From assembly GCF_013315695.1 (NCBI RefSeq), contig NZ_CP054353.1: DNA of 64,000 bases. The stretch is one strand, 5' to 3'. The notes below the pieces were generated by a model. That model had not been told where the DNA came from and searched no databases. It saw only the letters and a list, made by a program, of their open reading frames with translations. This document shows, piece by piece, positions 1 through 56,698 of the stretch (position 1 is the first letter of the stretch; each line of letters opens with the position of its first letter). The translations under genes were made by a program, and so were the position numbers. Source of the DNA: Escherichia coli (GTDB lineage Bacteria > Pseudomonadota > Gammaproteobacteria > Enterobacterales > Enterobacteriaceae).

Positions 1-2
1 CG

Positions 3-281
3 TTATTTTGTCATCTGCACGTATTTTTCTGCGCTCCTGATTGTTTTCAGGAAAAGAGCGAAGAGATTTACTGTGCGTCTTGAGTTCTTTTCATCCTGGT
101 TGATGGGAATTGAACCTCTGTCAGCCTGTCTTTTCACTGTGTTAACAGCTTGGTTAGTACGCTTTGCGTAATCTTTCAGGCTTTCTTCAAGTACTGGTAA
201 CCCATGCTCATCGCGGTAGGGATAGAACGCTGCTAAACGCTCAAAGTCTGCCTGTTCGTGTGTGTTCAGGACTTTTGCCAT
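3..281 (-). CDS. Phage early-region protein in the Cox/Apl position of a P2-type immunity region; 3' end runs off the window edge
   Basis: ORF starts at 281 and runs leftward to the window edge without a stop; transcribed divergently from the C-like repressor gene, as cox is in P2. No direct sequence resemblance to P2 Cox recognised. Confidence 0.4.
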   Translation of the reverse strand: MAKVLNTHEQADFERLAAFYPYRDEHGLPVLEESLKDYAKRTNQAVNTVKRQADRGSIPINQDEKNSRRTVNLFALFLKTIRSAEKYVQMTK

Positions 282-377
282 GTGTGATAACCTGCGCTAT
301 CTGTGGTTGTTTGTGATCTGGTGTACTTATAAGTACACCTTGTGCGCAAGCTTAGTGTACTTATAGGAACACTGTCA
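282..377. promoter_or_regulatory. Putative P2-type immunity switch region with candidate operator repeats
   Basis: 96-bp divergent intergenic region; perfect palindrome GTGTACTTATAAGTACAC at 321-338 and a second copy of GTGTACTTATA at 355-365, about 34 bp apart start to start. Confidence 0.4.
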
Positions 378-686
378 ATGCTTATCGGTGAAAAAATTAG
401 AGTGATTCGTGAATCAGAGGATTTAACGCGCGAAGAATTTTGCGGCCTGATTGATGTGCCTATCGGCACTTTGCGTCGTTATGAAACGGGGCGGATTGAA
501 AACATAGGGGGCGAAGTGCTTATCAAGATTGTTAATCACCCTCGCTTTTTTAAGTACATGAATTGGCTTATGACGGGAAAAACAAATGAGGCTGCTGGGC
601 AGATCAGTCCGTCTCTCTCCCCTGATGGGCCAAAAAGCACATCGCCTTCTCAAAAACCCCGCAAGACTGGCACACAGCCCGGCTAA
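378..686 (+). CDS. P2 C-like immunity repressor (small HTH protein)
   Basis: About 102 aa from ATG 378. C-terminal half (FFKYMNWLMTGKTNEAAGQISPSL...SPSQKPRKTG) resembles the recalled P2 C repressor tail (FTKYTLWFMTNQIAPESGQIAPAL...SGQKTG); N-terminus has an HTH-like segment. Lies immediately upstream of int on the same strand, as in P2. Confidence 0.75.
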   Translation: MLIGEKIRVIRESEDLTREEFCGLIDVPIGTLRRYETGRIENIGGEVLIKIVNHPRFFKYMNWLMTGKTNEAAGQISPSLSPDGPKSTSPSQKPRKTGTQPG

Positions 687-735
687 TCATGGAGCGCTGG
701 GGGCATGGTGGTCTTGTAACGCTGGGGTTTCACGA

Positions 736-1710
736 ATGAGCATAAAATCAATTCCGGGAGGATATCTTCTTGACATGCGCCCGGAGGGGCGTAAAGGCAA
801 ACGCATTCGTAAAAAATTTAAAACGAAATCGGATGCAGTTTTATATGAGCGGTGGGTGCTGGCGCAACAGCATAACAATGAGTGGAAAGGAAACTCCATT
901 GATCGCCGTCCGCTGTCAGTGCTTATTGACTTGTGGTGGAAATACCACGGTCAGCTAATGAAGTCAGGGCATAACACGCGCCTTAAATTGCTGCGCTTGA
1001 GTGAGGCAATGGATGACCCGTGCGTGCATAAACTTAATACAACGATGCTCACCGAGCTACGTGTGTCCAGGATAGAGCAGGGGATACAGCCCAGCACCAT
1101 AAATCGAGAGATTGGGGCGTTAAGCGCGATGTTTACCGCACTCATCTCATCCGGCCATTTTCTTAACGATAACCCCGTTCAAGGCCTTAAAGGAATGAAG
1201 GTTAACGAGCGCGAAATGGGATATCTGAGTAAGTCTGAATGTGTTCAGTTGCTGGATGCACTGGCTGAAAATCCCGATGAACGGCTGGCTGTCGAAATCC
1301 TTCTGTCGACCGGGGCGCGATGGGGCGAGGTAGCGGCACTGGAGCAGCGCCGTGTTCTTCATTGTCGAATCACTTTTTCAAAAACGAAGAACAGCAAAAA
1401 CCGTACCGTTCCTATTTCTGAAAGCCTGTTTGAAAAGATCAAAAAACGGGGCGGGAAACTGGTGTTTCCGACGCTGGATTATCCATTGGTTCGCGATGTC
1501 ATCAAAACGGTCGCACCTGATGTTCCTGACGGCCAGGCTGTTCATGCGCTGCGCCACACCTTCGCCAGTCATTTCATGATGAACGGCGGCAATATTCTGA
1601 CGCTCCAGAAAATTCTGGGGCACGCAAAGATTCAGACAACGATGATTTATGCCCATCTTGCGCCGGATTACTTGCAGGATGCGGTGAGATTTAATCCTAT
1701 TGCTGGGTAA
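736..1710 (+). CDS. int: P2-family tyrosine integrase
   Basis: 324 aa from ATG 736 (MSIKSIPGGYLLDMRPEGRKGKRIRKKF...). Shares extended motifs with the recalled P2 Int (NDPC, GIxPSxINR, LSTGARWGEA, HALRH-FA-HFM-NGG-I-TLQ-ILGH, YAH-APEYLQDA). The 586 start in the ORF track overlaps the repressor gene and is rejected. Confidence 0.9.
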   Translation: MSIKSIPGGYLLDMRPEGRKGKRIRKKFKTKSDAVLYERWVLAQQHNNEWKGNSIDRRPLSVLIDLWWKYHGQLMKSGHNTRLKLLRLSEAMDDPCVHKLNTTMLTELRVSRIEQGIQPSTINREIGALSAMFTALISSGHFLNDNPVQGLKGMKVNEREMGYLSKSECVQLLDALAENPDERLAVEILLSTGARWGEVAALEQRRVLHCRITFSKTKNSKNRTVPISESLFEKIKKRGGKLVFPTLDYPLVRDVIKTVAPDVPDGQAVHALRHTFASHFMMNGGNILTLQKILGHAKIQTTMIYAHLAPDYLQDAVRFNPIAG

Positions 1711-1720
1711 GGAGGATGTT

Positions 1721-2116
1721 GTGGAAAAAACAGTTAATAGCGATTTGCATTTAGGTCAGTACTGGAGAATAGACATTGTCTGCGATCCAGAACTTCGAGA
1801 TGAGGTTGAGCAATATTTTTCTCGACACGATGTTGGTTTTAGCAAAATTGAAGTTTTTTCCGTCGAAAATCCATATAAACTTGCTCTGTTCTTTGATTTC
1901 GCGAAGAAGGGTGTGGAGGTTGCAAAAGCCATTATGGGACTCTTAGACCGAAATGATATTGAAATAACGATGTATCGTGCTACGGACAGTAGCCCGCAGT
2001 CTGTAAAAAGCATCAAATTGCGTAAGTCTGAAGACGTAGAGAAATGTAAAGATTTGCTTAGTACGTGTGTCGCAATTGGCGTTCAACGAAATAAGGAAAA
2101 AGAGGGGAGCGAATGA
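1721..2116 (+). CDS. Hypothetical prophage cargo protein, about 131 aa, acidic, no recognisable domain
   Basis: ORF in the track starts at TTG 1700; GTG 1721 is preceded by GGAGG (1711-1715) and is the likelier start. Lies between int stop and the host junction. Hand-counted GC of sampled lines is roughly 33-43 percent, against more than 50 percent in adjacent int. Confidence 0.5.
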   Translation: MEKTVNSDLHLGQYWRIDIVCDPELRDEVEQYFSRHDVGFSKIEVFSVENPYKLALFFDFAKKGVEVAKAIMGLLDRNDIEITMYRATDSSPQSVKSIKLRKSEDVEKCKDLLSTCVAIGVQRNKEKEGSE

Positions 2117-2222
2117 TCCACAAAGTGACCACATCCCTGTTATTTGTTGTGGTTGGCTGTGTTTTTGTGTGTCTGTAAGTCTTTGATAATTATCTAACTT
2201 ATTGATTTTTGTTTGTGTTTAT

Positions 2223-2249
2223 GGCCGCTCTGCGGCCTTTTTTCTTTTC
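2223..2249 (+). terminator. Rho-independent terminator
   Basis: GGCCGC-TCTG-CGGCC hairpin followed by TTTTTTCTTTTC. Confidence 0.6.
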
Positions 2250-2305
2250 ACTGTCGAAGAGTCACCGTAAAATCAACGCCATGACACTTCAGCAGAACGG
2301 ATACC

Positions 2306-3286
2306 ATGCTGACACTTGCCCGCCAACAACAGCGACAAAATATTCGCTGGTTATTATGCCTGTCAGTTTTGATGCTGCTGGCGCTTCTCTTAAGCCTTTG
2401 CGCCGGTGAACAATGGATCTCGCCAGGTGACTGGTTTACTCCTCGTGGCGAACTGTTCGTCTGGCAAATTCGCCTGCCACGTACGCTGGCTGTATTGCTG
2501 GTTGGTGCGGCGCTGGCTATATCCGGCGCTGTAATGCAGGCGTTGTTCGAAAATCCTCTGGCAGAACCTGGACTACTTGGCGTCTCTAACGGCGCAGGCG
2601 TGGGGCTTATCGCCGCGGTATTGCTTGGGCAAGGGCAACTCCCCAACTGGGCGCTGGGGCTGTGTGCGATTGCTGGCGCGCTTATCATCACTTTAATACT
2701 CTTACGTTTCGCCCGTCGTCATCTTTCGACCAGTCGGTTATTGCTGGCTGGCGTTGCATTAGGGATTATCTGTAGCGCACTAATGACGTGGGCTATCTAC
2801 TTTTCCACCTCTGTTGATTTACGTCAGCTGATGTACTGGATGATGGGCGGTTTTGGCGGCGTAGACTGGCGGCAAAGCTGGCTGATGCTGGCATTGATCC
2901 CCGTGTTGTTGTGGATCTGTTGTCAGTCCAGGCCAATGAATATGTTAGCACTTGGCGAGATCTCGGCGCGGCAACTGGGTTTACCCCTGTGGTTCTGGCG
3001 CAATGTGTTGGTGGCAGCGACCGGCTGGATGGTTGGCGTCAGTGTGGCGCTGGCGGGTGCTATCGGCTTTATTGGTCTGGTGATCCCACATATTCTCCGG
3101 CTGTGTGGTTTAACCGATCATCGCGTATTACTTCCCGGCTGCGCGTTGGCAGGGGCGAGCGCATTGCTGCTGGCCGATATTGTAGCGCGCCTGGCATTAG
3201 CTGCCGCAGAGCTGCCTATTGGCGTGGTCACCGCAACGTTGGGTGCGCCGGTGTTTATCTGGTTATTGTTAAAAGCAGGACGTTAG
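2306..3286 (+). CDS. btuC: Vitamin B12 ABC transporter permease
   Basis: 326 aa, [15 protein letters not shown]..., multiple TM segments; K-12 gene order btuC-btuE-btuD. Confidence 0.95.
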
Positions 3287-6174: not shown

Positions 6175-7650
<1,476 letters not shown>

Positions 7651-32517: not shown

Positions 32518-32654
32518 CGTGTAATGGCTGCATGAAATAAACAATAAAATATAAATAACATTATCAGCCTGCTGACGGCTTGAAGAGAGTCACAGTATCT
32601 TGTGCAACATTATTGGAAAGAGTGAGGGGCGAGGTAGCGAAGCGGAAAAATGTT

Positions 32655-32760
32655 AAAAAAAAGCCCATCGTGGGAGATGGGCAAAGACTACACACAGCAA
32701 TTCGTTGTTTCACTCAGGGGATTTCCATGCTTATAAATCAATATGTTGATTTATAACCGT
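32655..32760 (-). ncRNA. rprA: RprA small regulatory RNA
   Basis: Minus-strand reading ACGGTTATAAATCAACATATTGATTTATAAGCATGGAAATCCCCTGAGTGAAACAACGAATTGCTGTGTGTAGTCTTTGCCCATCTCCCACGATGGGCTTTTTTTT matches recalled RprA, including the terminator hairpin and U-tract; located between ydiK and ydiL as in K-12. Confidence 0.85.
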
Positions 32761-38196: not shown

Positions 38197-38419
38197 TCCT
38201 GACTTAATGCCGCAAGTTCGCCATATCGACCTGGATTAACCTCCGTCCAGGTTCGATGGACTTCTTAATACTGCTTATCTACCCGCCTGATATTGTTCAA
38301 AAATAATACTAATCGCAGTTTGTGTTAAAACGGTGGGTTAGCTTTATGAGATTATTCTTATCGCCCCTTCAAGAGCTAAGCCACTGAGAGTGCCGGAGAT
38401 AAGCGCCGGATGGGGTAGA

Positions 38420-38466
38420 AACCCTTAAGCCTGTGATGCACAGACTTAAGGGTTTTCTTATTTCTG
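38420..38466 (+). terminator. Strong intrinsic terminator in the ydiH-sufA interval
   Basis: Perfect 10-bp stem AACCCTTAAG/CTTAAGGGTT with 15-nt loop, followed by TTCTTATTTCTG. Confidence 0.6.
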
Positions 38467-56126: not shown

Positions 56127-56432
56127 TCAGGCGAGTTTTGCCTGATTGATTTGACTCAGTGGCTCATTGACATCGAAAACTTTGGCGACAACTTCCTCAA
56201 CGCCGAGATTTTTCAGTCGGGCAGTATGTTTTTCCAGATAGGCAAGGGCGCTTTTTTCATCAGTAAAAAGGTAGATCCCACCGGCTTCGTGGTTCTTTTC
56301 ACTTTCTGTCCATACCTTCCACAGAAAACCAGGTTCCTGATTAATCGACTCAGCAAGCGGTTTAAGCTGCTCAGCCATTGCGTCGCCAAATGGGCCATTG
56401 AAAGAAAAATGAAGTTGTAACAAAGTTGCCAT
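56127..56432 (-). CDS. ydhR: Putative monooxygenase-like small protein YdhR
   Basis: 101 aa. Confidence 0.85.
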
Positions 56433-56540
56433 AGCGATTCTCCTTCTGATAACGCATACGAAGACAGTGTAAATCTTTTAACGTATTGGATACAGAGAAG
56501 AAACAGAGGGAAAAAAGGAGAAGACCAGATTAAGAAAATC

Positions 56541-56617
56541 TGGTGCGTCCGAGTGGACTCGAACCACCGACCCCCACCATGTCAAGGTGGTGCTCTAACC
56601 AACTGAGCTACGGACGC
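56541..56617 (-). tRNA. valV: tRNA-Val (anticodon GAC)
   Basis: Reverse complement reads GCGTCCGTAGCTCAGTTGGTTAGAGCACCACCTTGACATGGTGGGGGTCGGTGGTTCGAGTCCACTCGGACGCACCA, a cloverleaf with CCA end. Confidence 0.9.
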
Positions 56618-56621
56618 AGGA

Positions 56622-56698
56622 TGGTGCGTTCAATTGGACTCGAACCAACGACCCCCACCATGTCAAGGTGGTGCTCTAACCAACTGAGCTATGAACGC
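56622..56698 (-). tRNA. valW: tRNA-Val (anticodon GAC)
   Basis: Reverse complement reads GCGTTCATAGCTCAGTTGGTTAGAGCACCACCTTGACATGGTGGGGGTCGTTGGTTCGAGTCCAATTGAACGCACCA. Confidence 0.9.

Follow-up and report, generated by a model that had tools for sequence, protein, structure and literature searches.

The window analysed here is a stretch of 64,000 nucleotides of Escherichia coli DNA (contig NZ_CP054353.1), and its first 2.2 kb form the right end of a P2-like (Peduoviridae) prophage. An orphan open reading frame (ORF) at 1721-2116, lying between the integrase gene (int) and the attachment site (att) of this prophage, was very probably a translated, swappable cargo gene. The best overall explanation was an accessory cassette of the prophage that would be expressed from the promoter Pc and encode a conflict-related factor acting by binding (probability about 0.45).

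The exchange of cargo behind int was apparent from the genome survey. This int was present in about 305 of 5,426 complete E. coli genomes, with the ORF behind it in about 151; the ORF was found in 158 of the 5,426 (about 3%), including O55:H7, O111:H8 and O104:H4 strains. Most other carriers of int had an int and att arm that were 98-99% alike and a longer, unrelated insert in the slot. Alignment (blastn) with three prophages carrying other cargo covered only 1..1697 and 2109/2113..2400. Because homology broke at 1697 and resumed at 2109-2113, the exchanged unit comprised the last four int codons, the Shine-Dalgarno (SD) sequence and the ORF. Three other cargo layouts occupied the slot: a 120-residue plus a 145-residue gene, the 145-residue DUF1640/CCDC90 gene alone, and a 166-residue plus the 145-residue gene. 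The alternative cargo belonged to two families annotated without a function, PHROG 4293, a soluble protein rich in Cys, and PHROG 9415, a coiled coil anchored in the membrane by its C terminus. The alternative cassettes had a GC content of 42-44%.

The original prediction had taken the ORF for accessory or moron cargo, and the unrelated genes in the same slot of prophages with about 99% identical int and arm bore out the cargo interpretation. The survey that it had proposed, of what P2-like prophages carry between int and att, was made here for the roughly 305 E. coli genomes with this int, and returned this ORF in about half of them and unrelated genes, in the three other layouts seen, in most of the rest. 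Across 23 IMG/VR loci the ORF followed the same int while the repressors varied from 100% to about 55% identity and were of at least three types; it is linked to int and not to immunity type. As expected of morons and accessory cassettes, the ORF lay inside an att-bounded prophage, was replaced in near-identical phages and had a deviant base composition. Unlike a classical moron, it showed no promoter-like site of its own and no terminator other than the att core; 'operon-embedded cargo gene' is a better name for it than classical moron.

The features of this prophage end, in order of position, were:

3..281, minus strand: Cox-like excisionase/early repressor gene (PHROG 11533, E 1e-54; PHROG 575, 'Cox-like excisionase and repressor')
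378..686, plus strand: C-type immunity repressor, which opens the leftward lysogenic operon (PHROG 147, transcriptional regulator; RefSeq helix-turn-helix (HTH) protein)
736..1710, plus strand: tyrosine integrase, int (PHROG 1 integrase, E 4e-73; RefSeq tyrosine recombinase)
1698..2112, plus strand: swappable cassette (blastn against loci L005, L006 and L007)
1711-1715, plus strand: SD sequence GGAGG, 5 nt 5' of the GTG start, read from the sequence
1721-2116, plus strand: orphan ORF, 131 residues, soluble product, PHROG 14142
2117..2133, plus strand: TCCACA-N6-CCACA, probable Int arm-type binding sites (P' arm), from resemblance to the Int-bound arm sites of P2
2117..2222, no strand: attP arm between cassette and core, 33% GC, about 99% conserved in prophages with other cargo
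2223-2247, plus strand: att core GGCCGCTCTGCGGCCTTTTTTCTTT, 25 bp, which is the rho-independent terminator of ihfA; one copy at each end of the prophage, a single copy in K-12

The att core was defined by aligning the K-12 ihfA-btuC spacer with both prophage ends. It lay 106 bp beyond the end of the ORF, and its second copy stood beside ihfA at the far end of the prophage. The ORF is therefore inside the prophage, between int and the prophage-host junction, as had been predicted. Beyond 2.2 kb the window was E. coli core chromosome (btuC, btuE, btuD, nlpC, ydiV onward). Positions 736-2300 were 100% identical to E. coli O55:H7 CB9615, in which the prophage measures about 35.6 kb, lies between ihfA and btuC and has the usual Peduoviridae structural genes. 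The order of C repressor and int was the same as in P2 (Pc-C-int).

The arm motif TCCACA-N6-CCACA began at the base right after the ORF stop, 89 bp from the att core, and matched twice in the 64-kb window against 0.09 matches expected. In the annotated P2 record (AF063097) the arm sites TGTCCACA-cag-TGTCCACA (P' arm) and TCCACA-N6-CCACA (P arm) are marked as Int-bound (L065 794-821 and 971-997). The P' arm site overlaps the 3' end of int, with the core about 80 bp beyond, and the P arm abuts the ogr terminator on the other side. No gene is annotated between int and attP in AF063097, which agrees with the earlier statement that P2 has nothing there. Motif and core in the window were spaced about as in P2. 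Since the motif starts right after the ORF stop at this P2-like spacing, the ORF was inserted exactly between int and the P' arm with the attP geometry kept. The same motif adjoined att in related loci, and in a subfamily of 128-residue relatives it lay between the att core and the ORF start (L016, L019, L008 and L023).

The GTG start of the ORF came 10 nt after the int stop codon (TAA, 1708-1710), and RefSeq calls the same coding sequence (WP_000416306.1, 'hypothetical protein'); the 131-residue length, start codon, GGAGG ribosome-binding site and tight coupling to int of the original prediction were all confirmed. Its claim that the ORF is AT-richer than its neighbours also held. The GC content was 40.2% (36.4% at third codon positions) for the ORF, 49.2% for int and 55.4% for btuC, and it was 48.1% for the remaining prophage part of the window (z = -3.2). 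Across the 64 kb, only 4.8% of 396-bp windows were equally AT-rich. The description of the product as acidic was mildly correct for this protein (isoelectric point (pI) 5.3; 24 D/E against 20 K/R) but not as a family trait, with homologues ranging from pI 5.0 to 9.4. The protein had no transmembrane segment (maximum 19-residue Kyte-Doolittle mean 0.99), and no signal peptide was found in it.

The ORF matched PHROG 14142, an unannotated family, over its full length (E 1e-69; residues 1-128 on the 128-position profile). Salmonella homologues were 60-63% identical and had the same C-int-ORF-btuC position and the same start codon position (ATG in Salmonella, GTG in the ORF). A profile search of 1.84 billion representative proteins gave 12 matches, one of them spurious (a 2,029-residue repeat protein), and two search rounds over 5.8 billion sequences gave about 50 clusters, none outside Enterobacterales. 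At least nine genera were represented (Escherichia, Salmonella, Citrobacter, Enterobacter, Klebsiella/Raoultella, Yokenella, Yersinia, Pectobacterium and Kosakonia). Apart from one, the members read in large collections were named only 'hypothetical' or 'uncharacterized'. Full-length homologues down to about 27-30% identity kept the start and the invariant residues. Ten columns were invariant over 43 sequences (F33, A68, M72, G73, L74, R77, E81, L100, C109 and L112), and the strongest family motif was IMGLLNRNDIEIE. The pairwise ratio of nonsynonymous to synonymous substitution rates (dN/dS) was 0.14-0.31 wherever dS was unsaturated. Because of this ratio and the full-length homologues in several genera, the ORF is not a chance reading frame. 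Of the two refutations named earlier, an untranslated 3' region was contradicted by the same data together with the conserved start, and homology to a known phage structural or regulatory protein did not emerge either, PHROG 14142 being the only family matched.

Relatives of about 128 residues, about 27-38% identical, were located at the other end of their prophages. The order there was host gene, att core, IHF-like AT tract with TCCACA-N6-CCACA, hairpin, SD, ORF, terminator, and then convergent hok and/or ogr-gpD or other tail genes. This layout was found at fabF, raiA, dsbB, yccJ, ytfP, prpB and topB; one short contig had a homologue between a transposase fragment and lptE. All relatives examined lay at the edge of a Peduoviridae prophage near att, after int or on the ogr/hok side, at at least nine integration sites including ihfA/btuC. 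When circularised, both arrangements read int, attP, ogr, with the ORF on either side of attP, and this distribution on either side of attP is unusual. The 128-residue type was present in only 13 complete E. coli genomes and is therefore optional there too.

Several individual loci were of note. Both subfamilies occurred in one 15.7-kb IMG/VR region (IMGVR_UViG_2778261161_000003; L064 1-165 and L039 6001-6393), with the 128-residue type by hok and the 131-residue type after int. E. coli NZ_CM149560.1 likewise carried both types, one per end (2187424-2187663 and 2201799-2202399). Two such copies in one prophage would flank attP on the circular genome. One carrier prophage was inserted inside topB and left it N-terminally truncated (L026 2273-3847). 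In another, downstream of prpB, repeats resembling repetitive extragenic palindromes replaced the first 41 codons of the ORF (L022 4200-5000). A gene split by attP was considered for the 57-residue 'proteins' that begin at the invariant M72, and was rejected: the full GTG-start ORF was present upstream in L023, and L022 was a simple 5' truncation.

The stretch from int to the ORF showed no promoter-like site, and the only terminator-like site that a scan gave downstream of the ORF was the att-core hairpin; this points to the ORF as the third cistron of the Pc transcript. The regulation of P2 Pc by C and Cox is established biology. By analogy, the ORF is most likely made from the Pc transcript (C-int-ORF) and would be a gene of the lysogenic state: read behind its strong SD on a transcript ending at the att core, it would be expressed weakly and constitutively, both in the lysogen and during establishment, and would be shut off when Cox represses Pc. 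The intergenic region of cox and C contained two similar elements at 321-338 and 355-372, GTGTACTTATAAGTACAC, which is a near-perfect palindrome, and GTGTACTTATAGGAACAC; these are probably the repressor operators of the Pe/Pc switch.

The AlphaFold (AF2) model from the 43-sequence alignment was confident (predicted local distance difference test (pLDDT) 81.4; predicted template modelling score 0.74). The modelled topology was b1(14-21) a1 b2 b3 a2 b4 b5 a3 b6(116-123), with the N-terminal 10 residues disordered. The structure prediction and Foldseek comparison that had been advised gave no convincing PDB neighbour; the significant AFDB50 matches were all uncharacterised proteins of 107-160 residues (template modelling score 0.6-0.67) from diverse, mostly proteobacterial organisms. 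A0A379FVI2, A0A2D0JQK7, A0A0R2ZGC5 and A0AAW4T828 were among the structural neighbours in AFDB. The earlier statement that no motif could be assigned held for Pfam, NCBIfam, PADLOC and PDB sequences, in which neither the ORF protein, the family profile nor individual members had a match. The modelled product is small, soluble and of the alpha/beta type (b-a-b-b-a-b-b-a-b), and neither a catalytic motif nor a partner gene could be recognised. A candidate zinc or cysteine cluster (H10, C21, C45 and C109) had C45 replaced by V in the ORF protein and by Y in one Salmonella homologue.

The protein would act stoichiometrically by binding a protein or nucleic acid, the most economical guess because it is small and soluble and lacks a partner gene and catalytic signatures. 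It would serve as a lysogenic-conversion or conflict factor that shields the lysogen or prophage from phages or satellites in competition with it. Of two hotspot preprints (bioRxiv 10.64898/2026.02.27.708500 and 10.1101/2024.10.15.618418), one describes the int-att interval as a minor hotspot for defence in P2-like prophages; the third P2 hotspot that the other reports lies between CI and a tail gene. In the sister hotspot of P4, six of eight tested unknown cargo loci are reported to be protective. Because the slot is reported as a hotspot and because of these P4 loci, a defence or exclusion function became the leading reading of the ORF, on a tentative footing. The original prediction had called the int-att interval a typical site for cargo; cargo does occur there and the hotspot is described, but one of the two hotspot preprints calls it atypical, with 3% of P2 defence systems. 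More doubtful was the stronger form of this reading, in which the ORF would represent a new single-gene anti-phage or anti-satellite immunity family with a fold absent from PDB, found on either attP flank in Peduoviridae of Enterobacterales and here wired into the repressor-integrase operon, so that protection would be tied to lysogeny.

Several results weighed against a conflict factor expressed in lysogeny. The PADLOC check that had been proposed returned no PADLOC-DB 2.0 family, either for the ORF (E<=10) or for 10 relatives (E<=1), and none of the features usual in defence or exclusion proteins (sensor, effector, nuclease, NTPase or membrane) was found in the protein. In the 128-residue subfamily a terminator-like hairpin lay between the arm sites and the SD (L016 ~6560-6606, L019 6952-6977 and L008 ~1325-1350), and promoter-like sites were no more frequent than in shuffles, so that a promoter of its own was rejected there. 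Because of this hairpin and the shuffle-level promoter-like sites, it is not evident that most of the family is expressed in lysogeny. A tblastn search of 50,697 phage records and 72,556 plasmids gave no match to either subfamily, and the carriers may be largely unsampled or defective prophages. The hairpin of the 128-residue subfamily occupied the same position as the ogr/F-operon terminator of P2. Read-through expression would have been suggested by co-orientation with the upstream host gene, which was seen at six sites; the idea was dropped because topB did not conform.

Among the other explanations, lysogenic conversion directed at the host was unlikely and still the strongest: with a ferredoxin/ACT-like b-a-b-b-a-b core, the protein would serve as a small regulator or bind a ligand, and it would tune host physiology and not act on other phages. 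Slightly less likely again was a counter-defence or establishment factor, expressed through Pc immediately after infection while the genome is circular, that would neutralise a host immunity or stress pathway for lysogeny. In the circular form every family member lay downstream of int in the same orientation, and a small, soluble single-gene product with no enzymatic motif resembles many anti-defence proteins. However, charge was not conserved over the pI range given above, which excluded a DNA mimic of the Ocr/ArdA type; a preprint found only two kinds of anti-defence system (Anti_RM as well as Anti_CRISPR), in 28 P2 elements; and expression driven by Pc would be late and weak for such a role, judging from established P2 biology. 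A toxin-antitoxin module was also considered and rejected: the ORF was a single gene in every context, hok was a separate convergent locus, and no Rfam match was found in 1-2400.

A recombination accessory factor that modulates Int, Cox or IHF at attP would account for the constant adjacency to att, and it was improbable. In all loci examined the gene strictly adjoined the attP arm sites on one side or the other, and the 131-residue subfamily was, as noted, tied to int. However, among prophages whose int and arm are about 99% identical, about half lacked the ORF and were integrated at the same site, and P2 recombines with nothing in that slot. No HTH or other DNA-binding domain was detected in the protein, and the prophage has a separate Cox-like gene at 3-281. 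A recombination directionality factor (Cox/Xis) was rejected on the lack of an HTH, the Cox-like gene and the same-int prophages without the ORF.

More improbable again was a small nuclease effector of the RuvC/RNase H-like or PD-(D/E)xK-like type. It drew on two database names, 'RuvC family protein' for WP_133252896.1 (a 128-residue relative at the topB locus, L026 4001-4387; RefSeq) and 'PDDEXK family nuclease' for one Citrobacter member (P0114; submitter name), and on a conserved charged cluster with D79, E81 and E83 on one strand together with K99, R101 and D105. The RuvC reading was rejected (hhalign 0.33%, no hidden Markov model (HMM) match, and a fold that disagrees). So was the PD-(D/E)xK reading: there was no acidic residue two positions before K99, the Citrobacter member had no significant HMM match, and the topology was wrong, with only two strands between helices a2 and a3. 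Since no HMM, profile or fold evidence supports them, both names look like over-annotations. A decaying remnant or untranslated int 3' region, as some truncated or short database forms might suggest, was barely credible given the purifying dN/dS, the distant full-length homologues with conserved start and invariant residues, the confident model (pLDDT 81) and the 57-residue forms being gene-calling artefacts of the GTG start or a single 5' truncation.

Outside the window, the gpA-portal hotspot of the same prophage (L001 10064-12070) contained ParM, a plasmid partition/stability protein, a ClpX-type zinc-finger protein and a hypothetical gene; no recognised defence system was among them. A Hok/Gef toxin gene adjoined attL (L004, region of 13258-14971 and 15572-15712), and a gene for a 221-residue hypothetical protein lay between gpD and ogr. 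The gpD gene looked broken (a pseudogene fragment plus a 266-residue coding sequence), and the prophage may for this reason be defective. In the host part of the window, Rfam matches at gathering score were RprA, rydB and two tRNAs (32653-32760, minus strand; 38363-38423, plus strand; 56544-56698, minus strand; 56416-56579, plus strand), and a match to the HPnc0260 'antisense' family overlapped the tRNA region.

If the ORF protects the lysogen, the defence repertoire of P2-like elements would gain a single-protein system that is very small and has an uncharacterised fold. The int-att slot, which is little studied, would gain a well-defined example in which the breakpoints are mapped and one site has four alleles. 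Its carriage in about 3% of complete E. coli genomes, pathogenic lineages among them, gives it relevance to how P2-like prophages shape phage susceptibility. If it has no phenotype, it would be one more orphan prophage gene. Being a swappable cassette in a slot already described as a hotspot, the ORF is a plausible candidate for a role in phage conflict, and not a surprise.

Membership of PHROG 14142 tells nothing of the function of the ORF, the family having no annotation. The hotspots reported for the int-att interval and between tail gene and CI are the same interval, of which the ORF and the alternative cassettes are concrete alleles; the hotspot papers catalogue recognisable defence systems, whereas the ORF matches no PADLOC model. 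Literature searches for WP_000416306 and PHROG 14142, the two hotspot preprints included, found no mention of either. The slot is already in the literature as a hotspot, and the ORF is an uncharacterised, well-delimited allele of it, with nothing yet pointing to a surprising mechanism.

The ctx gene of the Pseudomonas phage phiCTX is an accessory gene right next to attP in a P2-like genome, and it encodes a secreted pore-forming toxin; unlike ctx, the ORF protein had no signal peptide, transmembrane segment or likeness to any toxin family searched. The alternative cassettes (phrog_4293 plus phrog_9415/DUF1640) resembled the ORF in insertion point, orientation and low GC, but were unrelated in sequence, formed one- or two-gene modules and included a membrane protein, where the ORF encodes a single soluble protein. 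The old, tin and Z/fun genes of P2, which are active in the lysogen against other phages, had no sequence or structural similarity to the ORF and, unlike it, sit in other slots, the two classical P2 hotspots (gpA-portal; within the tail genes), with their own promoters; like the ORF, they are non-essential Peduoviridae cargo swapped between close relatives.
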